Shown here: positions 1 to 53,459 of the stretch, in pieces
Layout: each line of letters starts with the position of its first letter
Position numbering within the stretch: the stretch's first letter is position 1
DNA from: an uncultured Gammaproteobacteria bacterium
Lineage (GTDB): Bacteria; Patescibacteriota; Microgenomatia; Levybacterales; GWA1-39-11
Direction of reading: 5' to 3'
Assembly: GCA_964409875.1 (NCBI GenBank)
Contig: CAYPEN010000001.1
Location: 356,275 to 420,274, forward strand
DNA: 64,000 nucleotides
Made by a program: the position numbers and the translations under genes
The notes under the pieces: model-generated
What the model was told of the DNA's origin: nothing
Seen by the model: only the letters and a program-made list of their open reading frames with translations
The model's database searches: none

Positions 1-3000
1 GCAACTGACGGAACGATAACCGCCACAGGAGACATCAATGCAAATTCGGGAGTTTTGGCAACAACTCAAAGTTCAGCTTCCTTATTTAATACTAATGCAA
101 CAACTCTTACTATCGGTGGTGCTGCAACAACGCTTACCCTTGGCGCATCAACAGGCACCGCTACCATAAATAACACGACCGTTGTAGCACCAAACTCACA
201 ATTTGGTATCGGGACTGCTTCTCCAATTTCAGCATTATATGTAACCCGCCCACTGACTCTTGGCTCAACAGGGAAGGCGCTTGCGATATTTGACCAAATA
301 GAGAACCAGGATATTTTGACAGCATCCGCTTCAGGTGTCACGAAATTCACCGTTTCAAATACAGGAAACGTTACAGCCGCGGGGAATTTGGACATTACAG
401 GAACCTCCCAATTAACAGGTAACGTCACAACTTCAGGCGACCTTGCTGTTAATGGTGGAGACATTACAACGACCAATGCGACAGCTACCTTATTTAATAC
501 GAATGCCACCAACCTGTCCATTGGGGGTGCTGCAACTACCGTTTCACTTGGAGCAGGAACAGGAACAACAACCGTCAATAATAACCTGAGCGTATCCGGC
601 ACAACCACCTCAACCGGGCTTATTACAGCAAATGGTGGACTTACGGTTGCCTCCAACCAAACATTGACTGCAAACGGTTCAGTTGCAATTGACCCGAATG
701 GAGCAAATGACATTACTATTACGACTGACTTCTCTGCCGGTTCGTACCTTACTATTACCGGTCTTGATACCCAGACTGGAAATACCCTCTGCGTTGACGG
801 GTCTAATAATGTAGTCAAATGTTCTGCCGCTTCAACGACGTTGCAGTCGGCATACAATGGCGGTAACACTATAACCACTTCAGACAACAGGGATATCGCA
901 TTTACACTGTCAGACACAACTACCGACAGCAACTTTACCGTAACAACTGCCGATAACTCAACAAGTTACAGCGCATTTACAAGAGCTAACGGTGCCGGCA
1001 CTTCCGATCCATCGCAGCTCATACTGGTTGATAACCTTGATACTGACCGTGCAATTGCAGCAGGTATTAAAATTCAGGCAGCTGCTGGTGGCATCACCAA
1101 TGCACTTGATGTTTCAGATCCTGAGATTGTTAATGCGCTCTCCTTTGGCCTAAATGACATCATCGGTACACACGTAACAATAACCGGTAGTAACGGTAAC
1201 ATCGCAACCGATGGTACTGTCAATGCAACCGGGGATATTACAACCGGTGGGGACTTGGCAGTAAACGGCGCAACATCCGCTGACGTTACAACCACAACCA
1301 CCACCGCGACGGTATTTAACACAAATGCTACGACACTTAACATAGGTGGTGCGGCAACGACCTTAACGCTTGGTGCATCCACTGGAACTGCAACCATCGC
1401 AAATGGAACGGTTACATTCTCAAATGCAACGGCTTTTGACGCGCTTACCGCTTTGGCAAGAGTTGACTCACTTCAAGTCGGCGGAGGGTATGGTTCAACT
1501 GGGGTAACTGTTTCAAACACTGGTAACATTCAAGCAAACGGAACGTTAACTGTAGACGGACTTTCGACGCTTACAGGCGGAGTGACATCGCCTGGCAACA
1601 TTACGACGACCGGAACCGGAGCAATAACATCTGCCGGAACGCTTACCGCCTCAAACGGTTTGACTCTTACAACCGGTGCATTAAGCCTGACAGCAACCTC
1701 CGGTTCGCTCAGTCTTTCGGGTCTTGGAGCATCATCTCTCAATTTTGGGGCGAATGATGTCACCTTCACATCAGCCAACTTCAATACCACGTCAACCGGT
1801 ATCAACGGGACGGCAATTGGAGCAACTACCCCCTCGACTGGTAACTTTACCAATTTGACGACCACATCAAACGCATCGTTCTCCGGCAACTTGACGCTTG
1901 CAGGCGCCCCCCGCTCTATCCAGACGACGGAAAACAATACCCTAACTCTTGGTGGGAATACAACCGGCAATATTAATCTTTCGCCTCTTAACGGAGTAGG
2001 CATAGTAACTGTCAATGGAAATACCGTAGTATCTGGTTCTAATACTCTTACAGTCGGAACAGGCCTTACTACCCTTGGAGGAGCATTGAATGTGGCGGGG
2101 ACATCAACGTTTACAGGCAATATTTCCCAAACGGGGGCAACAACCTTCTCAACCGGGACAGGGAACGTTTCGTTAAATGGCAACACTTCGGTTACCGGCT
2201 CTAACACATTCACCGTCGGAACAGGGCTTACCACACTTGGTGGAAACCTGTTGGCGCAAGGGACAGCTTCTATTTCAGGCGACTTAACATTGTACTCGAT
2301 ACCTACGATTCAATCGGCTGCAAACCAATCACTTACTCTTGGGGGGAACACAACCGGGACAATTAATCTTAATGACAACACAAATGTACTGGGGAGCAAT
2401 ACCTTTACTGTCGGGACTGGAGCAACAACTCTAGGCGGAACTCTTGATGTTGCAGGTGTTGCAACGTTTACAAATAACATCTCCCAGACGGGGACAGCAA
2501 CATTCTCTACAGGAACGGGTAATGTTTCGTTAAATGGCAATACATCCGTAACCGGAACCAACACATTCACCGTCGGAACAGGTCTTACCACTCTTGGCGG
2601 AAACCTGTTGGCACAAGGGACAGCCTCTGTCTCCGGCGGACTTACACTTTACACAATTCCAACTCTGCAATCGACCGCTAACCAGACACTTACCCTGGGT
2701 GGGAACACAACAGGAGATATATCATTTAAACCGGGGAACAATACTTCAACCCTTTATCTCTCATCAGCAGGTAAAGTTGGCATAGGCACATCAAATCCTC
2801 TCTATACCCTTGATGTCATAAACGGAACTGCTAATACTGGTACCGGTGGATATGGAGCAAATCCAGGCAGCTTCTCTATTACAGGTCCCGATTTGGCAGT
2901 TGGAGCGGCAGGTGGTAATATGGTCTTTACAACAAACAGTAACTTTGCTGCTGATGCAGGAGGGTCTATTGCGCTAGGAGGCCGATATATCTCAGCATCA

Positions 3001-6000: not shown

Positions 6001-9000
6001 CTTATTACAGCCTCATCCTCAGGGGCGACAAAGTTTGAAGTTCTAAACGGAGGCGGCATCAGGATTGCTGCCGGTAACACAATTGACAATTTGACGTCTG
6101 GAACGCTTAGCATTGGAACCGTGAATGCTTCAACTTTGAATTTAGGCACCGCAACAACAGGAACGACGAATGTATACGGAGGAAATATAAATCTTAATGG
6201 GAATACCAATGTTGCATCCGGCAATACGTTTACAGTAGTTTCGGGTCAAGCTGTTATTACAGGTCAAAATTCTGGTGGTGCAACTACGTTAAGGGTTAAC
6301 AACCACACATCGGGTGGGTCAATTGCGGTATTCCAAAATGCGGCTGTTGATGTCTTCTCAATACTCAATGGCGGAAATGTTGCCGCGACGAAAGAGTTGA
6401 GTGTTTTGGGGAATGTAAGTGCAGGTACGACAACATCGCTCACATCTTTGTATGTTGACGGACAGAATTCAAAGGGTCGCGCGGCATTCATAGTCAACCA
6501 GACCGCATCATCATCAAATGACATTTTTGCCGCTTCCTCGTCTGGTACTACCAAGTTCCTGGTTGCCAATAATGGGGACACAACTATTTCTGGTACAACT
6601 AACCTCAACGGTGGAGCTACAGTTGCTTCGGGGCAGACCTTGTCTGTTCTTGGACCCGTGTCACTTGATCCTAACGGGGCAAACGACATAACGTTGACAA
6701 CCGATTACACAGCCGGCTCATACTTGAATGTTCCCGGACTTGATACCCAGGTTGGGACCCAGCTTTGTGTTGACGGGTCAAATAATGTCGTCAAATGTGC
6801 TGCAGGTTCGAATTCATTGCAAGCTGCATATAATGGAGGGAACACTATAACAACCTCAGATAACAGAGACATCGCATTTACCCTGACCGACACGGCAACC
6901 GACTCAAAGTTCACTATCACCAATCAAGGGACGGCAAATGCATTCGTCATCAATGACACGAATGGAGCCACGAACACACTTCTTGAGCTTCAGTCAGGTG
7001 GAGTCCAGAAATTAACAATTGATGAGTTAGGGAACATTACGACAGCTGGGGACGTTGCAGTCAATGGTGGAGATATAACTACAACGAACGCAACAGCAAC
7101 TGTGTTTAATACAAATGCAACAACTCTTCAAATCGGAGAAGCTGCGACTAACATTTCAATCGGAGCCTTGACCGGTTCAACAACTATTCACAACGCTGTC
7201 AATGCAAACGGACTTTTGACTGCAAACGCCGGTGCTATCGTTCCGAGCGGTCAAGCATTTGATGCCTCCGGTTCTGCGACGTTTGTTCCAAATGGAACAA
7301 ATTCTGTAACCATAGCAACTGATGCCGATTCATTCCTGAAATTGACTGGGCTTACCACCCCCGGTATATCAGGAAATGCTCTCTGTATTGATGCATCTAA
7401 CAATGTGACAAAGTGTTCTTCCTCAACCTTCACGCTGCAAGGAGCGTACAATGGAGGCAACACAATTAGCACTTCTGACAATAGGGATATTGCATTCACC
7501 CTCTCTAACACTACAACCGACAGTAACTTTAGTGTAACGACCGCTACCGACTCGACAGGCTACTCAGCCTTCACCCGAGCCGACGGAGCAGGGACTTCCG
7601 ATCCGTCCCAATTGGTGCTCATCCAAAATCTTGATACCAATAGAGCGCTTCCCGTGGGCCTTAAGATTGCCGGCGTAAGCGGTGGGAATGTTACAACAGC
7701 GCTAGATCTAACGGACAGTAATATCACGACAGCTATTGCATTGGGAACAAATAATGTGAACGGTACTAATTTCTCAATTACAGGGAGTTCGGGTAACATT
7801 ACAACATCCGGAGATATTGCAGTAAACGGCGGAGACCTTACAACCAGCCAGGCATCAGCTACCTTATTTGATACTAACGCGACAACCCTTAACCTTGGTG
7901 GAGCTGCTACAACCCTCAACCTTGGTGCTGCGACTGGAACGGCAACAATTGCAAACAACACGGTATCACTCTCAAATGCAACCGCATTCAATGCCCTTTC
8001 AGCCCTTGCAAAGGTAAGCTCTCTTGAAGTAGGTGGAGCGTATGGGTCAACAGGCGTGACCATTTCGAGTACAGGAGATATACAGGCAAATGGAACGCTC
8101 ACAATTGATGGAACCTCAACACTTACAGGTAATGTGACGGCAACAGGCGACATTGCGGTTAATGGAGGAGATATTACTTCAACATCAGGAACGGCAACGC
8201 TTTACAACTCCGGAGTATCAACTGTTAATATAGGAAGCGCAGCAACAACTGTAACGCTCGGCGCCGCAACAGGAACAACAACCGTTAACAACAATTTGGG
8301 CGTAACCGGGACCCTGACGTCAACCGGCCTTGCTCAATTTAACGGAAATGCACTCGTCCCTAACGACCGGTCGTTTGATGCGTCGGGGGCGGCCACTTTT
8401 GCACCAAATGCAACCAATGACGTTACATTTAATACAGACAGTGACTCAACTATTGTCTTGAATGGTCTTCAAACGGCAACAGGTACTACGCTTTGTGTCG
8501 ATGGATCGAACAACATTGTGAAGTGTTCTGCTGCTTCAATAACCCTTCAATCAGCCTACAACGGAGGGAACACTATCACAACCTCGGCCGGGCGCGATAT
8601 TGCCCTTACCCTTACCGATGCTAACTTCAGCGCTACAGCTTCAGCAGGTTCCAACGGGTTCTCACAATTTGCGCTTGCTAATGGTTCGAATGCAAATCCT
8701 GCAAACCAAATCGTTTTGGTTGAGAACCTCGATACTAACGAAGGGGTTACAACAGGAATTAAAGTACAAGCCTCTGCAGGTGGCATCACCAATGGAATCG
8801 ACCTCTCCGATCCTGAGCTTGTAAATGCGCTTGCCCTGGGTGCTAATGATGTTGTAGCTACAAACTTCTCAATAACCGGTTCGAATGGAAATATTGCGAC
8901 CAATGGTACTATTACTGCAACGGGCGACATTAATGTAAATTCCGGGACACTAGCTACAAATCAGACAACCGCAAATCTGTTCAACGCAACCGCTACGACT

Positions 9001-12000
9001 CTTAACATAGGTGGTGTTGCTACAACGCTTAACCTTGGGGCTTCTACCGGAACGGCGACTATCAATAACACAACCGTAAATCTTGCAAACGCGACAACCT
9101 TCACTGCAAATTCCGCAGCTGCTTCGTTTGATTCACTTACTGTTGGCGGCGGGTACGGGTCAACCGGGGTAACCGTTTCAAATACAGGCAACATTCAAGC
9201 TAATGGAACTTTGACAGTTGATGGTATCTCGACATTAACAGGTAATGTTACGACCTCAGGCACAATCAATGCTAACGGGGGAACAATTGCTACCAACCAA
9301 ACTACAGCCAACCTGTTCACAGCAAATGCCACCACTCTTAATATAGGAAGCGCGGCAACAACGGTGTCGCTCGGTGCTGGAAGCGGAACAACAACCGTCA
9401 ACAACGCTCTTACATCAACGGGTCTTATTACAGCAAATGGTGGACTCACTGTTTCATCGAGCCAAACTCTTACCGCCAATGGTCCTGTTTCAATTGATCC
9501 GAATTCTTCAAATGACATTGCGATAACAACAGATTTCTCAGCAGGTTCATACATCAATATCACAGGTCTTGACACGCAAAACGGAACAGCCCTTTGTATA
9601 GATGGCTCTAATAATGTTGTGAAATGTGCCAATGCTGCGGCAACATTGCAATCTGCTTACAACAATGGAAATACTATTCTTACTTCTGATTCAAAGGATA
9701 TAGCATTTACCTTATCCGACACTACAACTGACAGCAATTTCATGGTGATGACAGCTACAGGCTCAACAGGATACTCAGCGTTTACCCGGGCAGACGGAGC
9801 AGGAACCGCAGACCCTGCCCAATTAGTTTTGATTCAAAACCTTGACACAAACCGCGCCCAACCTATCGGTCTTAAAATCGCAGGTGTGTCAGGTGGAAAT
9901 ATCACTACTGCGCTTGATTTGTCGGACAGCAATATAACAACTGCGATAGCTTTGGGGACTAATAATATTTCCGCAACCCACTTCACGCTTACCGGCTCAA
10001 ATGGTAACATTGCAACTGATGGGACAATAACTGCAACAGGAGATATCACATCTACCGGCAATCTTGCTGCCAATGGCGGGACTCTTTCTACCACCAATTC
10101 GTCTGCCAATGTATTTAATGCCAATGCAACCACTCTAAATATAGGCGGCGCGGCTACAACGGTTTCACTGGGTGCCGGAAGCGGAACGACAACGGTTAAC
10201 AACAGTTTGACCGTTTCGGGTTCTGCTTTTGATGCCCTTTCAGCCCTTGCTAGAGTTGACTCTCTTCAGGTTGGTGGCGGATACGGCTCAACAGGTGTAA
10301 CAGTTTCTAACGCCGGTACTATCCAGGCAAACGGTAATTTAACCATTGACGGGACATCTACCCTCACGGGTAACGTTACTGCGACAGGAGATATCGCCCT
10401 TAACGGTGGTGACCTCACGACAACTTCAGGGACTGCGACCTTATTTAATGCCAATGCAACGACTTTGAATATCGGCGGCGCTGCAACGACTGTTTCGATT
10501 GGAGCAGGAACCGGTACAACGACGGTAAACAACAATCTGACCGTTGCCGGAAATGGGGTTTATGCAGGTACCTCTACATTCAATGGCGACGTCACGATAT
10601 CAAGTGACCGCTACTTTAATGCCTCGGGGTCTGCAATCTTTTCACCGGCTGGAACAGAGTCTGTAACGGTGAATACAGATGCAGACTCATTCCTGACGCT
10701 CAATGGGCTTACAACTCCCGGAGTTGCCGGAACAACACTTTGTATTGATGGGTCGAATAATGTTACGAAGTGTGCGGCAAGCACATTCTCGTTGCAAGGC
10801 GCATACAATGGCGGAAATACTATTAATACATCAGACAACAGGGATATTGCCTTCACGCTTTCCAACACCACAACGGACAGCAATTTCACGGTTACAACTG
10901 CCGACGGCTCAACAGGTTACTCGGTCTTCACCCGTGCAAACGGATCAGGCACGTCTGACCCAGCGCAACTCGTTCTCGTTGACAACCTTGACACAGACCG
11001 TCCGGTCGCAGCAGGAATTAAGGTGCAGGCTGCAGCGGGTGGTATAACCAACGGTATTGATTTGTCAGATGCAGAAATAGTGAATGCTTTGTCGCTTGGG
11101 GCAAATGACATCACATCAACCCACTTTACTCTAACGGGCAGCAACGGAAATATTGCAACTGATGGGACCATCACGGCGTCAGGGGACATTAACGCCAACT
11201 CCGGGACATTAGCAACGAATCAGACCACCGGTAACTTGTTCAACGCAACAGCAACGACTTTGAATATCGGTGGCGCTGCAACCACCGTATCTTTGGGAGC
11301 AGGTTCAGGCACGACAACCGTTAATAATTCGCTTACGGTCTCAGGAAGCGCGTTTGATGCGTTGTCTGCACTTGCCAGAGTTGACTCTCTTCAGGTTGGG
11401 GGCGGATATGGGTCAACAGGAGTAACTGTTTCAAATACCGGTAATATTCAGGCAAACGGAACGCTCACAATTGACGGCGTATCAACTTTGACCGGAAACA
11501 TCACAACTTCAGGGACAATCAACGCCAATGGAGGAACAATTGCCTCCACACAATCCTCATTTGATCTCTTTACATCAACCGTTACGACCCTTAACGCAGG
11601 AACAGCGGCTACCACCCTTAATTTGGGCGCGACAACAGGAACAGCCACTATTAACAATGCAACCGTTACCCTATCCAATGCAACCGCATTTAATGCCCTC
11701 ACTGCCCTTGCGAAAGTTGATTCACTGCAAGTCGGTGGCGGATATGGTTCGACAGGGCTCACCATCTCTAACGCCGGCAATATTCAGGCCAATGGAACAC
11801 TTACGGTTGATGGTACTTCAACGTTAACAGGAGATGTGACGGCCGCTGGAGACGTTGCAGTTAACGGTGGAGATATTACAACGACAGCTGCCTCTGCTAC
11901 CCTCTTCAACACTAACGCAACAACACTTGCTATTGGCGGCGCGGCAACCGGCTTGACGCTTGGCGCCTCAACCGGAACAACAACGGTCAACAACAATCTG

Positions 12001-27000: not shown

Positions 27001-30000
27001 ACATCAACTTCAAATTATGGAGCAACAACTACTGATACCAATACTTTTGGAAGCCTTTCATTCACGGCAGGACCTGCTCCTGTTGATGCAACATTTGCTC
27101 CAACGGGTCTTACTGTTGTTCCCAACTCTTCAACGGTTGATGGAACGTCAGATGTCATCTATGCTCCAAATGCTGATAACGTCTTAAGAATTGATACAAA
27201 GTACGGAGACGAGACGAATGGCATGGCTAAATACTACAATGCCAACTTTATTTCAGAAGACCTTATCGGTGACATCAGGGGCTACTTGCCATTTAATGGC
27301 TCTGGCAGCCTTGCAAATAATACGGCAATCACCGGTTCAACAGTGAAGGGCAATTCTTACATATCAAAGAATGCTAACGGAACCGGTATGGCGTATGGTT
27401 CAGGTGTCAGAGGAACAGGCCTTACCGGCATGACAACAGACGACTACATTTGTACTGGTTCAGGAAGTACTTGTGCAGATGATGCCGACTTTGATACGAC
27501 GACAGGAAGCATGACATTCGGAGCATGGGTAAAGAGGTCTTCAACAGGTTCTCTTCAAACAATTATGGCAAAGATGGGGAACGCCAATGCAGACCGCGCG
27601 TTCAGGCTTTCAATGAGTTCAACAGACTTCCCCACCCTTGAGGTAATGAATGGTACGGGAACCACAAGGACTGCTACCTCAGGTCAGGCAATAACAGACA
27701 CGACTAACTGGCACTATGTTGTCGGAGTATTCGACAACTCCGGCGGAAATCAGTATCTGTACGTTGATGGCGTTCAGGTAGCAACAACTACCAACACAAA
27801 TGACTCTGCCAACTCTGGTGTTGCATTCACCGTTGGTGCAGACCTCTCTGGCGCCTCAAACGCTGCAGCTGACTTCTGGAACGGTTCTATTGATGAACCG
27901 TTCTTCACAAGTGAAGTATTGTCCGCTACCCAAATCCAGCATATGTATGCTGTTGGACTTCAAGCTCTCCAAAACCACACCGCTTCCAGAGTCACAGGAG
28001 TAACAGGAGCTGATACCTATCAGAGGCTTTCGGGTGGTGGTAGTGCGGGTGTGGGTGTTTCAACTGCAACGTCAGTTGCAGTTGATGATAGTAATTCTAA
28101 GGTATTCATAGGTACAAGCGACGGTACAACAAATACCGGCGGCGTGTCGGTTATCTCAAATGCTTCCGATTCTCTGGTTGACCTATACTCTTCGGTCAAT
28201 ACTACGAAAGTTGACGACGGGAATAATACAATTGCAGCAAATGATGTGGTTGCTGTTTCGGTTTCAGGAAGCCCAACCAACGGTCAAGTTTTGGCTATTG
28301 GAGGTACAAATGACACTACCTATAAGGTCTGGGCTGAAACAAAGGATGTAAGCTTCCAGAACTTTATTGCCTCAAACTACAATCCCTTTGGAACAACACT
28401 AGTCCAACAGAACTTGAATGTAAATGGAATACTAAGTCTTAATAATGGAGGCATTGTATCAACGAGCACTAATTTCAATATCGACTTGCCTACCCTTTCC
28501 ACCTTCAGCATTTCAAATAGCTTGGGTACTATTCTTGCCCTGACCGATACGGCAACTACAGACACGCTCAGCCTTGGACTTGCAGGTTCCCGCAATGGCG
28601 CCATCTCATTCCAATCATCCGGCGCAGGAATTTCGGCACCGACAATTGCTGCAGACAGTCTTGGGAATTTGACCGTCCAGACAAATCAGTCGGGCACAAA
28701 TGTGACCGTCGGAAGCGGAAACGGAGCCATCAACATTGTTCCGACAAGCAACAACAACGTATTTGTATCACTTGGCTCCGGAGGCGCAACGGGAGATGTT
28801 CTTTACCAATCAAATGGAACGACATTCTCAACATTTACCGATACTGGGCGCGTCGGGGTAGGTAATTTCACCCCAACCGGATTCAAGTTTGAGGTTCAGG
28901 ATTCGCAGACTGCTTCTGCAGCTGCTCAAATTTACAATACATCAAGCAACACAGATGCTGACGGCCTTGTTGTGAAGCTTGGAAACACCTCGACCACGAC
29001 AGTATCAACGACAAATCATTTCATCAACTTTGAAACATCCGGAATTGGTATTGTCGGTAGCATCCAGGGTAATGGCGGTAAGAACGTCAACTACAAGACC
29101 AATGGTGTAGCTGACTTTTCTGAGTACATGAAGAAAGATCCGAATGAAGCTATACCTTGGGGTTCACTTGTTTGTCTTGGTACGGATGGAAATGTTCATC
29201 CATGCAACAACAACGGTGAGAAAGCTGTTGGAGTCGCTTCGGAATTCCCGACATTTACAGGAGGAGAAGATTTGGGTGACTCATCAATCACCGTTGGACT
29301 TTCAGGAATGGTGAATACCGTTGTTTCTAGCGCAAATGGTGACATCAATCCCGGAGACATGATTGCAGTATCCGCAACAACCGGTGTTGGGGTGAAGGCA
29401 ACCCAAGCTGGAGCAATAATCGGACGTGCTGTCGGTTCGTATTCCAATGCTGATACGAACGCAACAGGTAAGATTCTGGTTTCGGTTAATGTCGGGTACT
29501 ATGATCCGAATAATATTGCCACACACTTGAATTGGAACAATGGTACCCTTACTGCAGAAGGTGACCTGGTGACAACCGGCCAGCTTTCTGCAGGCACTGC
29601 TCTTCTTGGTTCAAGTGGTCAACTGTCGGTTGATGCTAACGGAAACATGTCGACGACCGGTGACATTATCGCCTCAAGTTTTGCTATTACAAACGGCAAG
29701 ATTTACTCCGACAACAATGGGAATCTTGTCAATCAGCTTGCAACAGATCTTAATGGCAACAACAATCCAACTAAGTTTGCCTTCAAGAATGCTGCCGGCA
29801 TGGAAGTTATGGGAATTGACAGTAATGGAAATGCGACCATTTCAGGAACTTTGACGACTAATATCGGTAACTACGATTTGGCAGAGGATTATCCGACCAA
29901 AGACGCAACAATTGAAGCAGGTGACGTTGTTGCGATTGATTCTGACAACGATACGCACATCACGAAGTCCCAGAAGGCATACGATACAGGCGTTATCGGT

Positions 30001-31563: not shown

Positions 31564-31678
31564 GTTTGCTACTTATTGTGGGTCAATCAAAATGCCAAGT
31601 TCACTTTCTTGATATATAAGCAACTAAATAATGTATGTTGCGACTGATTAGTTGCAAATTATTGAGGGTTTCTAACGA

Positions 31679-32781
31679 CTAGTTCTGAGTTGTAATAATT
31701 AATTGAGGAGCAAACTGGCTTTCTTTGCTTCCAAAACTGACTTCTCCCGAAAGAGATTCATCATCTTTCTTTAAGATCCAGCCGAAGTTTGAAGAGCTAC
31801 TATTTAGAAAATCATTCAAGTCAGTCGTCACATTAAAATCAATAGTGCCGGTTTGATTGTTTACGATTGTGTTAGTTGCAGTGGGTAATGAAACGAATGG
31901 CAAAGTACTATTGTTTAGCATATCCCAGGAGGTTGCACAGTCGGTTAGTGTATTTCTTATATTATTATCTACAGAACAGCCCCAAGTTGCGCCTTGTCCC
32001 GTTCCTCGGTCCGGGTTAATTGCACCGTTTATAAATCCATTTCCTTCTACCCAGTCAGATGAGAGCCGATACAGTGAGATGGGGCCTACCTGTAGCGCTC
32101 CAATTATTGGCATTATTTACTATTTTTAATCGTAGGGTTGCATTTGAGATGGTTGAACTTCCTACTGCTGCCTGGATTTGCGATTGGTCAAATTTCACCA
32201 AGGCTCTATTCTTCCCGGTTGACTTCAAACGTAAAAAAGTAGATAGACCTTCATTTTCATTTGGATAATCTTTTTTAATCCATGTATCTGCGGAGGGTGT
32301 TAGTGTAATTGAATTCTGGTTTACTGTGGGATAATCGGATTCAAAGGGCATATTTTCAATCAGGAAATTAGGAGATACCGCTACCTGATTATCGCAGTCC
32401 TGGTTTGCATTTTCATAGACAATACTAAATCGTGCGATAGTATCTCCAAATTGAAATGGGTCACTGCCGAAAGTTCCGGATGTAGAAAATTGTGCCAATG
32501 GTACGATGTTTTGGTCTTGAATGCTATTGTTACTATCAAGCGGAGGATCTGACATATCTTGGGTCGAAGTATTGAGTGCTACCGAAAAAATCTGCAGGTG
32601 AGTTGCTTCCTGTGCAATCGCCAGTTAGGGCAGGAAGAGCAGCAATGTCGCTTGAGGTCCAGGACAAAGAATAATCCCAATTTCCATTGTTGTTATATGT
32701 CGATAAATGCCAGGCAAAAGATGGATTAACAATTCCGAACAAAAATATAAAGAGTCCTGTAAGTACTCCTAACTTTTTCAT
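31679..32781 (-). pseudogene. secreted DNRLRE-domain protein gene, split into three frames by two frameshifts (pseudogene, phase-variable gene or homopolymer sequencing errors)
   Basis: Three overlapping minus-strand ORFs in three frames (32536-32781 with signal peptide MKKLGVLTGLFIFLFGIVNPSFA; 32055-32555; 31679-32113). Together they read as one protein containing LRLKSTGKNRALVKFDQSQI...ISNATLRLKI...NNWSATG...YRLSSDWVEGNG...GATW, a DNRLRE-type domain. Deleting one base in the A6 run 32585-32590 fuses frames A and B. The second shift maps near the G4/C2 run at 32081-32086. Confidence 0.6.
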
Positions 32782-32851
32782 TTATTATATTAAGATTACA
32801 TCTATATATGATTTTGTCAACTGATGGCCTTTATATCAAAAGTGTTATTAC

Positions 32852-35332
32852 CTATTGTATCGTTGTTCCACCTTTTATTGTCGTTCCTCCTCTAATGTTG
32901 ACATCAAGAGGAATGGTTGTTACTTGCGGATAATTCCGATATGCAGCAAGGTCTGAACTATCAGAATTAGTGATTTTGATGCAATAGGTTACTGAAGTTG
33001 AATCATCGGAATTATCAATAAGAGAAAAATCAAAAAGTCCTGCTCGGTTATTGGCAATAGCATTCTGGTCATTTGAGATGTTGTCGTAAGCAAGTACACC
33101 AATATTGGTATCCTCAAAGTAGTTCTCAAGAACGGTAGTGTATGTCGGAGTATCTGCAGGGTCATTTGCCGTAGAGGATATTACATCACCCGATGCAGGA
33201 GTCGCATTAGGATTGAACGATATTGGAGTACCGCCGGAAGGGTCAAGTACCTGAGCATATGTCCCATCTGCGCAATTTCCGCTTGTTGGAAGCGCAGCAT
33301 ATTGAAGAATAAAATCTCCAGCATCCACTCCAAGACTTCCCGTAGCACTATCAACATCAAGAAGCATACGAAGACGGAACGGGTAATTCGGCTGAGCCAG
33401 TGTTATGGGAGAATTTACGGCTGTGGTGCCGCCAAAGATGGTAGTTGGGTTGGCGGCATCAGTATTTTCAAAAAAACGGTAACTGCCCTGTGAAATAGTA
33501 ATTTGGGCATTATAAGCAGCAACGGCTGAGGAACAAGTACCTCCGGCGCCAGACCAAGTGACAATATCACGTTGAGACGTTGGAGGATTATTAACGGCCT
33601 CTCCCCAACCGCTTGTGTAGCTTGCTGCCCCTCCGGAATAGCCATCAGATCCACCATTTATATCCGTATCCGTAAAACCCGTTGATGAAGCACCGGTAAT
33701 TGCATTATGAGAACTGACGGTAAGACTACCATTCGTTGATGCAGCTGCGCTTACTAAAAGTTCATCAGGATTTGTGGGTGTAAGTGTGTTGGAGGTTTCA
33801 GTATGTGCCCCAGTATTACAAGTAGTATTTCTATGAACTGATGATACTTTGTCAAAAAAGCCGCTTGATGAATTCCCTGAGAATTCAAGCAATTGTGCCG
33901 CTATCTCTCCACTATTTGTAGTTGTTGTGCACGCTTGGGACGATATAGGTGCAGCAGGAGCAGTTCTATCAAAAAGATATATATTCGGACTGTTAGCAAT
34001 TCTGAAACGGCGGGTCCAGCTGCCGGGAGTGGAGAACGTATTGCTTGTATCCCTTGAACAGATGAGTACAAGAAGATGGCCGGATGTGGTGGGCGTGCTA
34101 AGCGTTGCTGTTACAGATGTACCTGATGCAGCAGTGTTATGGGCTTCCTGAACAAGAGAGAAAATTGAGTCGGAGGCAATTTGCCACTCCTGCCCCTCAG
34201 AGAATTGCCCAACTTTGAAAGGCCCGACCAGATAAAATTCCGGTGAAATATAGGGGAATTTTATGGTGTAGGAAAGCACGTGAGTTTCGCCCTTTTTCCA
34301 ATCAACTTGCCACTCTAGAGTCTTAATCTTGTTGTAATCGGCTATATCTCCGTGCTCCGAAATATCAAATATTTGAAAATTTGATGGAACGGTGTCATAG
34401 ACTGTTCCCGCAAAATCCCTATTCGCAGTTACTTTGATTTTCACCGGATAGTTGAAGCGTGGATAGATACGCATCGGATATTGAACCCTTTCTATAGTAT
34501 ATGGGGCAAAATCTCTGACCGTAAAAAATGAATCCATTTCATTGCTTCCTAAATAATTTTGCGCTTTTATATGCATCGTGTAACGACCGGTTTCCAAAGC
34601 CTTCGTTTGGGCAGTAAAGTCCGGGATATTGGTAAATGAGCGGTCTGCACACGTCTTACTTCCTGATATTGTGCCATTATCAGTCGAGAATTCTTCGGTT
34701 TTGCCGGTAGGGCTTGTTATGGTGAGCCAGAGTTTTGCCGTACCGAAAACAATTTTTCCCTCTTTTGCAATGCATTTCGTGATACCAAAATCATCGAGAA
34801 CCGCCATGCCGATATTTACCTCATCTCCCTTCATGTAAAACCCCTTATTGGTGTTGATAGCCAAAACTCCCCAGGTAAAATCCTGCGTTACTGTAATGTC
34901 TTCACCTGTATATGTTTTTACTTTTACGTCTAACATGTAAAGACCGGGCTTGAACCTGTTTTCTGTCTTTGGGGTAACGATAAGCTGCTTGTCGCGGTCG
35001 TTAAATTGGGTGTCTACTTTGAGTGAGATATCTCCTTTAGCGTTAGTAACACTTCCTTTGACCATTTTTTCGCGTTCTGCTGCATGCGCAGTCCACATGT
35101 TTTTAAATTTTTCTTCTGTCAATTTGAAAGCAAACTGCGGCAATGTATTTGCCTGGACAGCAATAGGTTTGTCATTTTGGTTTTGTCCTACAACAAAAAG
35201 CTGCCGCTGTTGTTGAATAGGAGACGGAGTGACTGATTCAGGTGCTTTTAAATAGACAATTACGAAAAAAACAAGAAGTCCAAGTGGTAAAAGTAACGAA
35301 GCAAACAATAGAAAAAGCCTTTTTAGGTTCAT
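32852..35332 (-). CDS. hypothetical secreted/membrane-anchored protein (826 aa), paralog 1
   Basis: Complete ORF with an N-terminal hydrophobic anchor (LFLLFASLLLPLGLLVFFVIVYL). Shares about 40-50% identity and the same domain order with the 35372-37834 product. C-terminus YRNYPQVTTIPLDVNIRGGTTIKGGTTIQ. Confidence 0.8.
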   Translation of the reverse strand: MNLKRLFLLFASLLLPLGLLVFFVIVYLKAPESVTPSPIQQQRQLFVVGQNQNDKPIAVQANTLPQFAFKLTEEKFKNMWTAHAAEREKMVKGSVTNAKGDISLKVDTQFNDRDKQLIVTPKTENRFKPGLYMLDVKVKTYTGEDITVTQDFTWGVLAINTNKGFYMKGDEVNIGMAVLDDFGITKCIAKEGKIVFGTAKLWLTITSPTGKTEEFSTDNGTISGSKTCADRSFTNIPDFTAQTKALETGRYTMHIKAQNYLGSNEMDSFFTVRDFAPYTIERVQYPMRIYPRFNYPVKIKVTANRDFAGTVYDTVPSNFQIFDISEHGDIADYNKIKTLEWQVDWKKGETHVLSYTIKFPYISPEFYLVGPFKVGQFSEGQEWQIASDSIFSLVQEAHNTAASGTSVTATLSTPTTSGHLLVLICSRDTSNTFSTPGSWTRRFRIANSPNIYLFDRTAPAAPISSQACTTTTNSGEIAAQLLEFSGNSSSGFFDKVSSVHRNTTCNTGAHTETSNTLTPTNPDELLVSAAASTNGSLTVSSHNAITGASSTGFTDTDINGGSDGYSGGAASYTSGWGEAVNNPPTSQRDIVTWSGAGGTCSSAVAAYNAQITISQGSYRFFENTDAANPTTIFGGTTAVNSPITLAQPNYPFRLRMLLDVDSATGSLGVDAGDFILQYAALPTSGNCADGTYAQVLDPSGGTPISFNPNATPASGDVISSTANDPADTPTYTTVLENYFEDTNIGVLAYDNISNDQNAIANNRAGLFDFSLIDNSDDSTSVTYCIKITNSDSSDLAAYRNYPQVTTIPLDVNIRGGTTIKGGTTIQ

Positions 35333-35371
35333 TTAAATGATTGAATTCAATTTTATTATAGCAAATGAAAA

Positions 35372-37834
35372 TTACTGAATCGTTGTTCCTCCGGTAATTG
35401 TTGTTCCTCCTTTGATATTTACATCCAACGGAATGGTCGTTACTTTCGGATAATTTCTATATGCATCTAGTAGTGACTGGTCTCCATTTGCTACAACCAG
35501 GCAATACGTAGTTGAAACAGAATCGTCGGTGTTATCAATAAGAGAAAAATCAAAAAGTCCGGCCTGGTTATTGCCCATCGTCAAGTTGTGGTTTGTAATA
35601 TCCTCGCTTCCGTCAGAAAGCCACGTCTCCGCATAATCTTCAAGTCTTGTTGTGTAGCCGGTATCGGTAGGATCGTTTGCAGTCGCTCCAATAATAGCAT
35701 TATTCCCACCGGAATTTGGATTGGGGTTGTATGCAATCGGGGTTCCATCAGCTTGGGTTCCAACAGGGTTATAGGTTCCGTCCGCACAGTCCCCGGAAGA
35801 TGGAAGTGGTGCATACATCAATATCCAGTCACCGCTATCTACATCCACTATTGTGCCTGAGGGACTGTCAACATCAAGCAGTATCCTGAGCCTGAAAGCA
35901 TACCCGGGTTGGCTAAGAGTAATTGGACTATTTTCTGTTGCGGTTCCTCCAAAAACGGTAATGGGGTCTACCGCATCGGTGTTTTCGAAAAACTGATAGC
36001 TCCCTTGTGAGACCGTGACCGTTGGGTTGAAAGAAACAATGATATTTGCACACGTTCCGCCCGACGCGTTGTAGGTTGCGGTATCATGGGTTGATACTGG
36101 TGGATTATTAACCTGTTCTGACCATGAACTGTCAAAAGTTCCTGTTGAGCCGTTAAAGCTGGCTGCGGTATCAGCGTAATCACTCAGATGGCTTCCGACA
36201 CTCGTTGTACCTGTTGCCGCAAAGGCCGCAACAACCAGTTCGTCAGGATTAGCTGGTGTTATATTGGATGTTGCACTCTGATGGGCGCCAGTACTGCAAG
36301 AAAAAGCATTTCGTCTGGCACGCCTATCTCTCACGCTACTGGTCGAGTTGCCTGAAAACTCGAGTATTTGAATTCCCAATGTGCCTGAGCTTCCCGAGCA
36401 GGTGACCGTAGCTGACATTCCTGTCGGAACCACACGGTAAAACATATAGGCTCTCGGGTTGCTCGTTGAGTTATTGTATGCGAGGGTAAATCCTGACGGG
36501 GTGTTAAATGTTGCACTGTTGGTTCTATAACACATAACAAGAACAAGATTTCTTTGTGTAGGAGCTGAAGGCAGCGTTGCACTTACAGAAGTACCGCTTC
36601 CATTATTGTGGGTTTCCTGGACAAGCTGAAATATGGAGTCAGATGCAATTTTCCACTCTCTTTTTTCTGTGAATGTACCAATTGTAAAAGGTCCAACTAG
36701 ATAAAATTCGGGAGCGACTTGGGGAAAATGTATAGTGTATGAGAAGTGATAAGTCTTACCCTTTTTAAGCGTTGTTTCCCACCCGACTGCTTGATAATCA
36801 GTTGTGTTTTCTGTCACGCCACCGTTTGAAATGTGAGTAATTTTGAAATTTTTAGGTACAATATCATGAATATAGCCTGAAAAGTCCTCATTTGATTTAA
36901 TAGTAACAGTAACCGGGTAATCTACTTTTGGATAAATTCTTGTAGGAAATTTTGTCCGCTCTATCTCAAATTTTGGTTCATTTTGTTCTACAACAAATGA
37001 TGTTTGTATGCTTCTCTTGCCCAGATAATGTTCTGCGTCCATTTGAATTTGGTATGTTCCGACCTCATTTGCAGTAATTCTACTCAAAAAATCAGCTTTA
37101 TTAGTAACACTTCTGTCTTTACAGTCTCCGCTTCCCCATATAGACCCATCCTCAGTAGACAGTTTTGTAACTTTACCTGTAGGACTTGTTATTGTCAGCC
37201 ACACTTTGGCGGTATTTAATTGAATGTCACCTGTTGCAATGCATTTTGTCCTTCCATAATCGCCCAAAACAGCCATGCCAATATTTACATCCTCGCCTAC
37301 TCTATATAGTGCCTTATTAGTATTTATTGCCAAAACACCCCATGTGAAGTCTTGCGTTATCTCTTCAGCTACCCCTGTTGCAGTTTTTACTTTAACACTC
37401 AATGTATAGAGCCCTGGTTTAACCTTGTTATCGTATTCGGGAGCTACGAGTACCTCTTTTTTTGTGTCTGAAAAACTTATATTTACATCAAGTTCTGAGT
37501 TCCCGGTCGCATGAGCAAAGCTGGCCTCTACAAGTTTTGTTCGCTCTATACCACTCGCCCGCCAAACATTATCGAATTTATTGTTTGACAGAGATACAGC
37601 AAACTTCGGAAGAGTTGATGCTCTTACTGTGATGGGAGTTTCTGAAGTTCTTTTAGATATTGGGATTACTCGTTCTCTTAGAGGTTTCAGAGAAGCATAA
37701 TTATGGGTATTCTTTGTTGTTTTAGACGGTTTACTTTTGGACTGAGAAAGTACAATCAATATTGAAAAGCAGAGAGCTAAAACTAGGAAAGAAATTACAA
37801 AACTTCGGAGCATCTCTCTAAAAGTATAGCACAA
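35372..37834 (-). CDS. hypothetical secreted/membrane-anchored protein (820 aa), paralog 2
   Basis: Complete ORF with an N-terminal anchor (FVISFLVLALCFSILIVL). Shares the LVL..C.R..TP.G.T and LEFSGNS...C.TGAH...NPDEL motifs with paralog 1. C-terminus YRNYPKVTTIPLDVNIKGGTTITGGTTIQ. Confidence 0.8.
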   Translation of the reverse strand: MCYTFREMLRSFVISFLVLALCFSILIVLSQSKSKPSKTTKNTHNYASLKPLRERVIPISKRTSETPITVRASTLPKFAVSLSNNKFDNVWRASGIERTKLVEASFAHATGNSELDVNISFSDTKKEVLVAPEYDNKVKPGLYTLSVKVKTATGVAEEITQDFTWGVLAINTNKALYRVGEDVNIGMAVLGDYGRTKCIATGDIQLNTAKVWLTITSPTGKVTKLSTEDGSIWGSGDCKDRSVTNKADFLSRITANEVGTYQIQMDAEHYLGKRSIQTSFVVEQNEPKFEIERTKFPTRIYPKVDYPVTVTIKSNEDFSGYIHDIVPKNFKITHISNGGVTENTTDYQAVGWETTLKKGKTYHFSYTIHFPQVAPEFYLVGPFTIGTFTEKREWKIASDSIFQLVQETHNNGSGTSVSATLPSAPTQRNLVLVMCYRTNSATFNTPSGFTLAYNNSTSNPRAYMFYRVVPTGMSATVTCSGSSGTLGIQILEFSGNSTSSVRDRRARRNAFSCSTGAHQSATSNITPANPDELVVAAFAATGTTSVGSHLSDYADTAASFNGSTGTFDSSWSEQVNNPPVSTHDTATYNASGGTCANIIVSFNPTVTVSQGSYQFFENTDAVDPITVFGGTATENSPITLSQPGYAFRLRILLDVDSPSGTIVDVDSGDWILMYAPLPSSGDCADGTYNPVGTQADGTPIAYNPNPNSGGNNAIIGATANDPTDTGYTTRLEDYAETWLSDGSEDITNHNLTMGNNQAGLFDFSLIDNTDDSVSTTYCLVVANGDQSLLDAYRNYPKVTTIPLDVNIKGGTTITGGTTIQ

Positions 37835-37844
37835 TTAACCTAAG

Positions 37845-40148
37845 CTATTGCTTGGGAGCGGCTGTAGGAGTCGTATTGAGAGCTGGCAAATTAGCATTTG
37901 GATTCTTCTTTACTGCAGCGGGAGTTGCAGGGGTTGGAGGATTATTGAGTCCATTGACTCCTACGTTCTGAAGATTTTCGCCTTGCAGGCCAGTATTATT
38001 TTGTCCGGCTGGTGCGGTTTGGGTGTTCTTTGAAGCCTCTGCTGCTTTGTCTGTCAATTCTTTCAAAAGAGTTTGAGCAACTTTGTAATCATTGCTGTTA
38101 GGATTGTTCTTTGCAAGGATATTTACAACCTGCTCAGCTACAGTCTTGGCGTTTTGGACATCTCCCTTGTCGCGGAGTGCAATTGCCAGGTTAAAGTAAG
38201 CATTCGCATGGTTTGGTTTCAGGTTCGCCGCATCTGTAAAGAAGCGGATTGCCAAGTCATAATTCTTTGCTGCATAATACACTCCTCCAACATTAAGTCT
38301 AAGCTCAGGATTTAATGGATCCCTCTGGATTGCTCGGCCGTAAGCGTCGAGTGAGAATGCAAGTGCGTTTTGTGCAACCCCCGAGATATTTCTGTAGATT
38401 GATGCGAGAACTACCCAATTTCGTGACGAGAGAGGGCTAAGCGCTACAGCGATTCTTCCTTCGTTGATTGCCTGTGAAAGGAGTGTCTGGATTGTTCTTC
38501 TGTCCTGATCAGTAAGAGTACCTTTAGGGTTATCTTTTGTAGGACCTTTCTGGATAGCAAGCGCATTTGCGAGTGCGAAATTAGTTTGTGCAATATCTAC
38601 CCTATACAAGTCGATTACAGGATTGAGTGATTCAGCTTTTTGCAGGTTGGTATAAGTTTGAGTTCCACTCTTTGCGGCAACAGTCAAAGCCTGTCTGTGA
38701 TAATAATCAGCAAGGACAGCATTGTACGTAGTGTAAAGGACAGGAACAGCTACAATAAGAAATACTACGAAGAATATGATGGGAAGAAGGTCAAATTGCC
38801 TGTCATCAACTGTTGATGCTTTCAGTCCCATTGAGAAGTGCATGACTTTTTCCCTGATTGACTTCTGAGCAACCATTAGCGCGGCAAATACTATTATTGT
38901 CGCAACGAAAGATACAAGTGTCGATGCATGAATTGCAAGAAGAACAATGGTTGTGATTCCGCTAACAGCAAGTGCGGGAACAATTACTGTCGTATTATCA
39001 TGCTGTACTTCCGCCGCTCTCATGGAGAGATTTCTCCATGAATTTATGAACACAATAAGGCAGACAAGCGCGAGTGAAAGAAGTCCGAGTATTCCGATAG
39101 TTCCAAGTGTCTGAAGATATTCGTTGTACGCCGTATCGAAAGTGAAGTTCCAATAATCGAGAAGATTGAATTCAAGCGGCTTATAATTTGTGAAGTTGAA
39201 TAAATAGGTTGACGGTCCTGTGCCGATGAAAGGAGCATCTCTGAAAGTTGATGCAGAAATCTTCCATGAAACTGAGAAGGGAAGCTGTATTTCATGAGGG
39301 AATTTAGAAGCCAATTCCTGTACTTTATTGCCGGGAAATGGAAGATACACAAGAACTAATGCAAGAGCTACTACCGCAACTGGAGTTAGAAACATAGGCA
39401 AACCCTTTTTGAATTTCGCTACTTTATGAGGTTTTGTCACAAAGAAACATAAAGCAAATACAATGGCAAGCGCAATGTAGGCTGGTACAGACCCAATAAG
39501 CGCAACCGTTACACCGAAAAGAATCGAAAGTGCTAACGCAACAGGAGCCGGCATGTATTTATTCACACTAACAATAGAAAGCAAGGGAAGAGGAAGCAGC
39601 AATGTGAGAAGTGCTACAGTTGAGAAAGATGAACCTGTTGGAGTGAAGTTAACCGCTTTTGCAAAAGAAAATGGAAGATAAATATTAAAGAACGAAAGTA
39701 TTGAAATAAGAGCAACAACAGCTGCGCTTCCATATAATACATACAGCAAAGTCTTTAATTTGGTAAAGTTTTTGAGGTTGGATACGGCAACAAAATACAA
39801 CAAAATATATGTCACCCATGCCACGGCCGAACCGTGAACCCGTGGGAAATTGCCATATATTGATTGGAACCTCGATTGACTGAAGTAGGTAGATGCAATA
39901 ACAATACCTAGCAATATTAATAAAGGAATATCTAGGGGAGTTCTAGTTATCTGGACTTTCCCTTTCACAATCCATGAAAAAATCCAAAGTCCGACGAGAA
40001 GAACAGTTGCCACAACAAGAAAAATGAGCTTAGGCATTTCGAAAAACTCGGTGGTTTGATTGAGAAAAAGAAGAGGTGTTACACCTACTACGGCAAGTAG
40101 TAAAAATGAGATGGCATTATCAACAATAACTCCTAATTGACCTTTCAT
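37845..40148 (-). CDS. polytopic membrane protein with C-terminal TPR repeats (O-antigen ligase/Wzy-like topology)
   Basis: 767 aa. More than 10 predicted TM helices in the N-terminal 480 aa. C-terminal TPR-like helical repeats (AKNYDLAIRFFTDAANLKPNHANAYFNLAIALRDKGDVQNAK) and a Pro/Thr-rich tail. The Wzy assignment is by architecture only. Confidence 0.75.
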   Translation of the reverse strand: MKGQLGVIVDNAISFLLLAVVGVTPLLFLNQTTEFFEMPKLIFLVVATVLLVGLWIFSWIVKGKVQITRTPLDIPLLILLGIVIASTYFSQSRFQSIYGNFPRVHGSAVAWVTYILLYFVAVSNLKNFTKLKTLLYVLYGSAAVVALISILSFFNIYLPFSFAKAVNFTPTGSSFSTVALLTLLLPLPLLSIVSVNKYMPAPVALALSILFGVTVALIGSVPAYIALAIVFALCFFVTKPHKVAKFKKGLPMFLTPVAVVALALVLVYLPFPGNKVQELASKFPHEIQLPFSVSWKISASTFRDAPFIGTGPSTYLFNFTNYKPLEFNLLDYWNFTFDTAYNEYLQTLGTIGILGLLSLALVCLIVFINSWRNLSMRAAEVQHDNTTVIVPALAVSGITTIVLLAIHASTLVSFVATIIVFAALMVAQKSIREKVMHFSMGLKASTVDDRQFDLLPIIFFVVFLIVAVPVLYTTYNAVLADYYHRQALTVAAKSGTQTYTNLQKAESLNPVIDLYRVDIAQTNFALANALAIQKGPTKDNPKGTLTDQDRRTIQTLLSQAINEGRIAVALSPLSSRNWVVLASIYRNISGVAQNALAFSLDAYGRAIQRDPLNPELRLNVGGVYYAAKNYDLAIRFFTDAANLKPNHANAYFNLAIALRDKGDVQNAKTVAEQVVNILAKNNPNSNDYKVAQTLLKELTDKAAEASKNTQTAPAGQNNTGLQGENLQNVGVNGLNNPPTPATPAAVKKNPNANLPALNTTPTAAPKQ

Positions 40149-46785: not shown

Positions 46786-47007
46786 TTAGAAATGAAAAGG
46801 GGAATTTACTTTTGCAGCATGGCTCATCACTTTTGCAACGAAATCTCCTATTATCGGAACAAAATCAACCTTAGAAAGGAGAAACACCACAAGTGCAATA
46901 ATGAAGGTTGTGCCTATCCAAACTCCTAAAGACCAAGAAATTCCTCCAATAAAATTATCAAGTATCATTTTCTTCCTACTTCGGTAGACATTTTCATTTT
47001 TTTCCAT
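46786..47007 (-). CDS. small membrane protein (73 aa), hypothetical
   Basis: Complete ORF with a single hydrophobic helix (GISWSLGVWIGTTFIIALVVFLL). Confidence 0.5.
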   Translation of the reverse strand: MEKNENVYRSRKKMILDNFIGGISWSLGVWIGTTFIIALVVFLLSKVDFVPIIGDFVAKVMSHAAKVNSPFHF

Positions 47008-47757: not shown

Positions 47758-47873
47758 TAAAGGCAAGCTGCGCTTATCTAGCTGAACTAATCGTCTCCGG
47801 TAATAATTTAGAGGCAAGACTCATCACTTCTAAAACAAGTTTTTCTACATGTAATTGCCCAACCAGATGTATG

Positions 47874-47945: not shown

Positions 47946-47966
47946 TCACCCACCGTATTTTCTTTG

Positions 47967-53438: not shown

Positions 53439-53459
53439 TGGTGCGGATAAAAGGACTCG
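53439..53459 (-). pseudogene. tRNA-Leu(UAG) 3'-end fragment with CCA
   Basis: tggtgcggataaaaggactcg matches gtgcggatgaaaggactcgaacc at the 3' end of the tRNA-Leu(UAG) gene (53619-53640). Its reverse complement ends ...ATCCGCACCA. Confidence 0.4.

Follow-up and report, generated by a model that had tools for sequence, protein, structure and literature searches.

The 64,000-nt stretch of contig CAYPEN010000001.1 analyzed here (the “window”) contains a giant open reading frame (ORF) that faces, on the opposite strand, genes for two related and putatively membrane-anchored proteins (paralogs A and B of the “820-aa family”) and for a polytopic membrane protein that combines a Wzy_C domain with a C-terminal tetratricopeptide repeat (TPR) domain (“Wzy_C+TPR”). 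The genes, their domain content, and the conserved neighborhood of Wzy_C+TPR, the 820-aa family, and the giant are directly established. We give even chances to the reading that this is a conserved surface-fiber locus of Candidatus Levyibacteriota (Patescibacteria, or Candidate Phyla Radiation, CPR), in which Wzy_C+TPR may glycosylate or attach the neighboring surface proteins. The giant is most likely a long surface fiber or adhesin, and the locus as a whole is a good, albeit unproven, candidate for a cell-attachment apparatus. How ultrasmall Patescibacteria recognize and hold their hosts is largely unknown beyond a few cultured lineages, with type IV pili and large adhesins implicated. The conserved three-gene neighborhood supplies concrete candidates (a fiber, a possible modifying enzyme, and anchored partners) in a lineage without a cultured member.

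The genes of the locus and their immediate context are as follows.

1–31563, plus strand: giant ORF, open at the left edge of the window, with its stop codon at 31561–31563
31679–32781, minus strand: DNRLRE/CBM96 gene broken into three frames, a probable pseudogene
32852–35332, minus strand: paralog A, 826 aa, with an N-terminal transmembrane (TM) anchor, an MG2-like module, two more beta domains, and a C-terminal tag
35372–37834, minus strand: paralog B, 820 aa from a TTG start
37845–40148, minus strand: Wzy_C+TPR, a polytopic membrane protein of the O-antigen-ligase family with a C-terminal TPR domain, 767 aa
40320–46745, minus strand: pheT, pheS, NUDIX, rplT, rpmI, infC, and thrS, upstream of the four-gene set and on the same strand (context)

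A first-pass annotation of this DNA had proposed a surface system of five genes. All five exist roughly where it had placed them, although the giant gene is convergent and the DNRLRE gene falls outside the conserved set. The giant gene occupies the plus strand and its four neighbors the minus strand, a layout without a shared operon, which rules out co-transcription of the giant with the other four. The four minus-strand genes are closely spaced (gaps of 10–70 nt) and begin 171 nt after pheT, the last gene of thrS-infC-rpmI-rplT-NUDIX-pheS-pheT. In the direction of transcription they thus follow these housekeeping genes and do not, as had been claimed, lie directly upstream of them. Promoter and terminator scans gave a signal no better than the shuffle level.

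Conservation of the Neighborhood in Levyibacteriota

Synteny was counted over distinct Levyibacteriota loci with enough flanking sequence (n = 13), and Wzy_C+TPR neighbors a homologous giant gene in every one of these 13 evaluable loci. In the clade of the window, the 820-aa family sits between the two: Wzy_C+TPR is followed by one or two 820-aa genes and then by a convergent homologous giant in loci L001–L007, L009, L011, L012, and L020. The contig of L010 ends before the Wzy position, and its 820-aa gene adjoins the giant. Locus L019 shares this layout with two genes added, and its giant differs at the C-terminal end, which hints, from its sequence, at swapping of the end of the fiber. Two divergent relatives, L021 and L024, are rearranged, yet the Wzy_C+TPR, 820-aa, and giant genes are all kept.

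The association extends beyond loci of this type. A further three Wzy_C+TPR orthologs, taken from long contigs, have no 820-aa gene but do have a homologous giant at most 4 kb away; the giants in these contexts are of at least 2,675, 7,567, and 6,357 aa. In a second clade (L046, L068, and L071), a Wzy_C+TPR that is 28% identical and has the same architecture precedes, in the same orientation, the gene for a 2,556-aa protein that opens with an MG2-like module, the N-terminal module of the 820-aa family. The outer flanks vary by locus and consist of the pheST operon, cytochrome oxidase (COX)/GH130 genes, or an IS1595-like gene. Conservation of the neighborhood thus holds for three of the five genes proposed at first (Wzy_C+TPR, the 820-aa family, and the giant), whereas the DNRLRE gene, the outer flanks, and the intervening genes differ. 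The adjacency kept in rearranged loci, in loci without an 820-aa gene, and in the second clade counts in favor of a surface-fiber locus with a dedicated enzyme. Given the convergent genes and the varying intervening genes, a dedicated attachment system is nevertheless something that we infer.

Several further features of these loci were recorded. The large gene at L019:12688-21567 (minus strand) has similar repeats and the C-terminal end ...KFNWWIVN, of the type seen in homologs of 1,800–2,700 aa. Genes of the beta-lactamase2 family lie between the giant and the MG2-like gene at L021:5066-7049 (minus strand) and L024:8764-9783 (minus strand). In many Levyibacteriota, Wzy_C+TPR adjoins a gene for a roughly 547-aa membrane protein bearing an HEYLH motif (L088:12340-13983, minus strand; also L002-L004, L012, L013, L018-L020, L087, and L089); this protein has no Pfam match and no homolog in the window, and its motif suggests that it is possibly a metalloprotease. 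Genes for COX1, COX2/COX_ARM, COX4_pro, and GH130 flank the locus at L002:1-1829, L004:1-1813, and L088:4992-8804; terminal-oxidase genes are not a default expectation in CPR bacteria. Just upstream of Wzy_C+TPR, a small IS1595-type zinc-ribbon gene (L087:9447-9902, L088:9417-9878, and L089:9303-9794, minus strand) takes the place held in the window by the pheST operon. The named sources of close relatives of the locus proteins are all Candidatus Levyibacteriota or the Patescibacteria group. Several records of metagenome-assembled genomes titled “uncultured Gammaproteobacteria” (L010, L011, L012, L016, L017, L019, L021, and L024) closely match Levyibacteriota genes, and these titles are probably mislabeled.

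The Giant Open Reading Frame

The giant ORF runs free of stop codons for at least 10,520 codons from base 1, with its start beyond the window, and a frame of this length cannot have arisen by chance. The regions recognized within it, all on the plus strand, are listed below.

Near nt 400–1480: one further super-repeat unit, bringing the total to 16 units
6376–24447: array of about 15 super-repeats of about 357–380 aa each, with a C-x9-C loop
26200–28356: conserved non-repeat module of about 700 aa with a LamG insert
27466–27939: Laminin_G_3 domain (PF13385; concanavalin A-like lectin/glucanase), Pfam E-value 1.9e-20, 74 bits against a cut-off of 27.6
29104–29508: C-terminal module X1 (DFSEY...GD...)
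29869–30279: C-terminal module X2 (YDLAEDYP...GDVV...GRVPVKV...), invariant columns 46–171 of alignment A2
30394–30666: coiled-coil segment
31201–31527: conserved C-terminal end domain

The encoded protein is dominated by Thr (18%), Gly (13%), Ala (11.5%), Asn (10%), and Ser (10%), which together make up 63% of its residues, and charged residues are below 10% along most of its length. The gene has a GC content of 0.46–0.50, compared with 0.39–0.42 around it, because of this Thr/Gly/Ala-rich composition. Super-repeat units share a mean protein identity of 56.6% (range 40–72%) and a DNA identity of 64–69%, and TRF found no tandem DNA repeat in the gene. Such divergence marks the repeats as old and speaks against an assembly artifact. 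Giants called in orthologous loci are 18,686, at least 15,142, 7,567, and 6,357 aa long. A homology search with the giant C-terminus returned proteins of at most 2,767 aa, and the very long orthologs were not among them. CPR genomes are generally about 1 Mb in size; a gene of 31–56 kb would take up several percent of such a genome, and selection for the giant must therefore be strong.

Family scans covered the whole ORF with Pfam, about 8,500 residues with NCBIfam, and the N- and C-terminal parts with PHROG. The single copy of Laminin_G_3 is the sole family match across the whole giant protein, so that of the plural “lectin modules” described at first one domain stands and nothing more. No tail-fiber family of PHROG, Pfam, or NCBIfam was matched in the scanned parts, and “tail-fibre-like” is a description alone. 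Neither a SecA-like domain nor an enzyme domain was found within the visible 10,520 aa, and no TM helices were found in the last 5,500 aa, the part checked. The conserved non-repeat module of about 700 aa looks beta-propeller-like from its sequence and recurs at about 40% identity in proteins of 1,800–2,700 aa, and several of these have an N-terminal signal peptide. The signal peptides on these smaller homologs count in favor of a surface fiber.

The final 600 aa of the giant, which hold X2, the coiled coil, and the end domain, are 45–86% identical among orthologs, and X2 is the best-conserved stretch in the alignment of giant C-termini. X1 looks, on reading of the sequence, like a paralog of X2. 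Comparison of the C-terminus with solved structures, both as a single sequence and as a profile, gave matches confined to the coiled coil. These included the trimeric coiled coils of P22 gp26 and reovirus sigma-1, and the matches are read as compositional.

The Wzy_C and TPR Membrane Protein

The first-pass annotation had described a Wzy-like membrane protein with periplasmic TPRs, and both domains were recovered on the minus strand.

39072–39530: Wzy_C domain (PF04932), aa 207–359, Pfam 43.3 bits against a cut-off of 31.7, E-value 4e-11
38028–38711: TPR domain, aa ~480–707, predicted to lie outside the membrane

An AlphaFold2 (AF2) model of the protein, with a predicted local distance difference test (pLDDT) score of 73, has 13 TM helices, a large loop at residues 269–338, and the TPR domain after the last helix, and hydropathy together with lysine and arginine counts agrees with this topology. 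By helix counting and the positive-inside rule, the TPR domain is predicted to be on the outer face, together with the Wzy_C loop, in agreement with the placement described at first; this shared side counts in favor of an enzyme that acts on neighboring surface proteins. Within the large loop, K296, R303, and GTG309-311 are invariant. Outside the loop, H407 is invariant as well. Orthologs were found in more than 120 clusters at 62–93% identity over the full length (488 matches overall), a degree of conservation that is unusual among Wzy/WaaL proteins. The Wzy_C score above the Pfam cut-off and this conservation also count in favor of the same reading. A Foldseek search with the model returned TPR proteins alone among the best 50 matches listed, and the membrane fold was not placed. 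The protein may be a ligase, a polymerase, or a protein O-transferase.

The 820-aa Family and Its C-Terminal Tag

Paralogs A and B are 49% identical to one another. The start of paralog B is likely the ATG at 37813, giving 813 aa and matching P0024. Each paralog has a single long hydrophobic helix, at its N-terminus, and no second one. We read the proteins as anchored in the membrane N-terminally with their bulk outside the cell, rather than freely secreted. The AF2 model of the paralog (pLDDT 77.5) is all-beta and multi-domain, and its top fold matches are the macroglobulin (MG) arrays of complement C5, C3, and bacterial alpha-2-macroglobulin, with TM-scores of 0.10–0.14. The resemblance of an all-beta model to MG arrays counts in favor of a surface role beside the fiber. 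A profile of the paralogs had no match amongst solved structures, and paralogs A and B have no Pfam A2M or MG2 match and no CxEQ thioester motif in their sequences.

The N-terminal module comprises aa ~60–390 of paralog A (window 34166–35155) and ends in EWQIASD. We call it MG2-like after precomputed Pfam MG2 assignments on related proteins, two of which scored below the Pfam cut-off on scanning here. The module is found in many CPR lineages, frequently with an inserted M23 peptidase or an appended LamG/DUF2341, and also at 32–38% identity in archaea-titled records, mostly DPANN (Woesearchaeota and Nanoarchaeota); the loci concerned are L035, L038, L051, L062, L070, L077, L078, and L080. Its occurrence in CPR bacteria and DPANN archaea hints at a surface architecture common to two radiations of tiny symbionts. 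The C-terminal domain of the paralogs (about 200 aa) constitutes a distinct module that can be repeated, with matches in 389 cluster representatives and up to 13 matched stretches per protein.

Both paralogs end in a short tag (minus strand).

32855–32896: C-terminal tag of paralog A, IRGGTTIKGGTTIQ, an unstructured tail in the AF2 model
35375–35416: C-terminal tag of paralog B, IKGGTTITGGTTIQ

The tag, [IV][RKQ]GG[ST]xIxGG[TS]x[IL][QR]-COOH or a near variant, is the very last stretch of almost every ortholog examined. Of the “tagged secreted paralogs” described at first, the shared tag therefore holds family-wide, whereas free secretion gives way to an N-terminal membrane anchor. The tag contains no hydrophobic segment, unlike sorting signals of the LPXTG and PEP-CTERM types, and has no NCBIfam match; lacking such a segment, it does not belong to a known type of sorting signal. 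The idea that the tag accompanies the 200-aa C-terminal domain was considered and rejected, as the tag was present in only 6 of 146 representatives with that domain, all six apparent family members or fragments of them. As a tandem RGGTxIxGGTxL, the tag also ends two more CPR ORFs, L031:9599-15247 (plus strand) and L064:5409-6686 (plus strand), the latter in a record titled Saccharibacteria. Neither has detected similarity to the C-terminal region of the paralogs, and the tag is thus not confined to the 820-aa family.

The DNRLRE Gene

The DNRLRE lectin gene was included in the surface system at first; its domain is present, but the gene is split over three frames and has no counterpart in L001, L009, or L010, the three closest relatives compared. 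The signal peptide is encoded by an ORF at 32781–32536 (minus strand). Positions 1–63 of the DNRLRE (NF033679)/CBM96 (PF24517) profile fall in ORF 32555–32055, and positions 74–164 fall in ORF 32113–31679. A T6 run (32585–32590) lies within the zone of the first frame switch, and the second switch coincides with the following feature.

32081–32084, minus strand: C4 homopolymer

Two frame breaks in 1.1 kb, compared with none in the 31.5-kb giant ORF, favor real decay over sequencing error. In L021, a distant relative, the two DNRLRE halves are contiguous and in frame as the C-terminus of an intact 911-aa protein with four CarboxypepD_reg domains. In the three closest relatives, about 150–230 bp separate the 820-aa gene from the stop codon of the giant. 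The gene is thus a probable pseudogene, an accessory and decaying passenger rather than a core part of the locus.

Proposed Mechanism

In the mechanism that we propose, the giant would be exported to form a surface fiber or adhesin of at least 10,520 aa here and of about 18,700 aa at most in relatives. Wzy_C+TPR would pick up a lipid-linked glycan on the external side of the membrane and pass it to a protein that its TPR domain keeps in place. This acceptor may be the giant fiber, the anchored proteins encoded alongside, or both, and the anchored 820-aa proteins may serve as cell-proximal partners of the fiber or as co-adhesins.

An improbable but more specific variant is a previously undescribed system for fiber assembly or decoration, in which a non-canonical Wzy_C enzyme without the usual catalytic His would capture the C-terminal tag (RGGTTIxGGTTIQ). 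The TPR domains of PEX5 and Hop capture C-terminal peptides; in a comparable manner, the outward TPR domain of Wzy_C+TPR would bind the flexible C-terminal tag of the proteins encoded alongside. The enzyme would then glycosylate these tagged proteins or couple them to the fiber of 10,000–19,000 aa. The MG2-like module of CPR bacteria and DPANN archaea would, in this variant, be a general membrane-proximal base of appendages.

Comparison With Known Systems

Amongst the closest known systems are the S-layer protein O-oligosaccharyltransferases WsfB of Paenibacillus alvei and WsaB/WsaA of Geobacillus stearothermophilus. WsfB is a polytopic Wzy_C protein with a C-terminal TPR domain and is reported to transfer lipid-linked glycans to the S-layer protein (PMC2943079). 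It resembles Wzy_C+TPR in having both domains in one polypeptide, and its host is a single-membrane bacterium. The likeness is one of architecture as described in that report (PMC2943079). WsfB differs in belonging to an slg-type glycan-assembly cluster, which was not found in the window, and in its acceptor, an S-layer protein as opposed to the candidate fiber of more than 10,000 aa and the anchored beta-sandwich proteins here.

The pilin and general O-oligosaccharyltransferases PglL/PilO (TfpO) are also of the Wzy_C family, with the enzyme gene commonly beside that of its protein substrate; PglL genes adjoin substrate genes in 21 of 31 cases (PMC3643930). Here, genes for putative surface proteins that are candidate acceptors are adjacent to Wzy_C+TPR, and this adjacency is conserved. 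In contrast to PglL/PilO, the PglL_A motif was not detected here, the position aligned by eye to the catalytic His is not His, the neighboring substrate candidate is no pilin, and the giant gene is convergent and not co-oriented. WaaL/Wzy proteins are similar in their Pfam Wzy_C domain, their numerous TM helices, and the conserved basic residues of a large outer loop. WaaL has no TPR domain, however, and no lipopolysaccharide genes lie beside Wzy_C+TPR in the window; the alignment with Escherichia coli WaaL was not significant.

In other Patescibacteria, contact with the host has been proposed to involve very large surface proteins that carry adhesion domains (PMC13059738). The large proteins of Absconditicoccaceae and the giants of Omnitrophota, from episymbiotic or predatory bacteria, are alike in that organisms with small genomes devote much of their coding capacity to one huge, repetitive lectin-domain protein with a proposed role in cell-cell contact (PMC13059738; bioRxiv 10.1101/2023.11.21.568195). 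They differ in belonging to another sequence family, and no SecA-like or enzyme domain lies in the visible part of the giant. Alpha-2-macroglobulin and complement arrays resemble the paralog model as a string of beta-sandwich domains; the paralogs differ in the lack of a thioester motif, a much shorter length, an N-terminal membrane anchor, and other C-terminal domains. Neither giant adhesins in symbionts with small genomes nor Wzy_C enzymes encoded next to their protein substrates are new as ideas. A literature search found no description of the giant family, of Levyibacteriota proteins of at least 10,000 aa, or of the conserved trio. In a survey of giant genes, CPR lineages are not listed among the phyla rich in proteins of at least 10,000 aa (bioRxiv 10.1101/2023.11.21.568195).

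Evidence Against the Proposed Reading and Alternative Explanations

Several observations weigh against a fiber locus with its own glycosylating or attaching enzyme. The conserved residues of the Wzy_C motif in E. coli WaaL are R215, R288, and H338 (PMC3643930). A comparison with this protein by hhalign gave no significant alignment. When the motifs were aligned by eye, H338 of WaaL (HLHNEIIEAG) fell against Y341 of Wzy_C+TPR (AYNEYLQTLG), and across 32 sequences this column holds Y in 26, N in three, and F, Q, and T in one each; the canonical catalytic His position of WaaL/PglL thus appears not to be kept. The PglL_A motif (PF15864) was not among Pfam matches at E ≤ 0.01, the membrane domain had no significant match amongst solved structures, and the scanned window ORFs included no glycosyltransferase, flippase, or initiating transferase. 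The N-terminus and export signal of the giant fall beyond the window edge, so that export to the surface is presumed, and its convergent gene is not co-transcribed with those of its partners. Mid-size homologs of the propeller and LamG module of the giant occur in two other contexts with no Wzy_C gene nearby. From locus to locus, different genes separate the giant from Wzy_C+TPR (PPDK, a toxin-antitoxin pair, the 547-aa protein, and beta-lactamase-family genes), a pattern that is also expected of a conserved chromosomal region without functional coupling. Finally, all of the evidence is from one candidate phylum, and synteny may have been retained by descent.

In the main rival explanation, which we judge possible but clearly the less probable, Wzy_C+TPR would be a core envelope enzyme of Levyibacteriota that polymerizes or ligates a wall or surface glycopolymer. 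It would lie by descent in a stable chromosomal region beside an independent giant adhesin and unrelated anchored surface proteins, and the neighbors would not be partners. Consistent with this, Wzy_C+TPR is far commoner and more conserved than the 820-aa family (488 matches and more than 120 clusters at ≥62% identity, compared with 35 full-length matches) and is often the next gene after pheT. Moreover, the giant gene is convergent, B-type paralogs are located elsewhere in some genomes, glycan-assembly genes were not found nearby, and the intervening genes include such functions as PPDK and a toxin-antitoxin pair. Descent alone, however, accounts less readily for an adjacency kept in 13 of 13 evaluable loci despite changed outer flanks and gained or lost intervening genes, for the independent pairing of Wzy_C+TPR with a large MG2-like-module protein in a distant clade, and for the outward-facing TPR domain, which suggests a protein partner. 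It is unlikely that the 820-aa proteins are instead alpha-2-macroglobulin-like protective or inhibitor proteins, or general wall scaffolds, with no link to the fiber. The top fold matches to complement C5 and bacterial alpha-2-macroglobulins would fit such a role, as would the pan-CPR/DPANN N-terminal module and its frequent fusion to M23 peptidase, LamG, or DUF2341, but TM-scores of 0.10–0.14 point to a generic beta-sandwich array, neither paralog has the CxEQ motif, and the A-type gene lies between Wzy_C+TPR and the giant wherever the flanks permit a view. A phage-derived or mobile tail-fiber cassette is a very improbable origin of the giant gene and was rejected: although its GC content exceeds that of the surroundings, its repeat architecture is fiber-like, and its coiled coil resembles those of viral fibers, there were no PHROG matches in its N- and C-terminal parts, no integrase or phage genes were found near the gene (its neighbors being housekeeping genes), its chromosomal position is conserved across the phylum, and the GC shift is accounted for by composition. 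Least probable of all, and likewise rejected, is an assembly artifact of collapsed or concatenated repeats. The highly repetitive architecture would invite one, but the units have diverged at both the DNA and the protein level, TRF registered no tandem DNA repeat, and independent assemblies contain orthologs of 6,357–18,686 aa at the same locus.

Other Features of the Window

Beyond the locus, cell-wall genes are concentrated at 52192–54369 and 59081–63624. They encode an M15/VanY peptidase, a glucosaminidase-like protein, GH18, an S11 D-Ala-D-Ala carboxypeptidase, and a class A penicillin-binding protein (transglycosylase plus transpeptidase). There are eight tRNA genes in the window, at 47873–48041, 53618–53701, 55546–55629, and 57433–57951, four of which are clustered (Gly-GCC, Phe-GAA, Val-TAC, and Leu-GAG); apart from these, nothing in the window matched at the Rfam gathering score. 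The ORF at 50484–51161 (minus strand) matches DUF5660, a family of unknown function. The 73-aa ORF at 46786–47007 (minus strand) may be DUF5665, also of unknown function, judging by its position, as L005 has a 73-aa DUF5665 gene at the corresponding place upstream of thrS.

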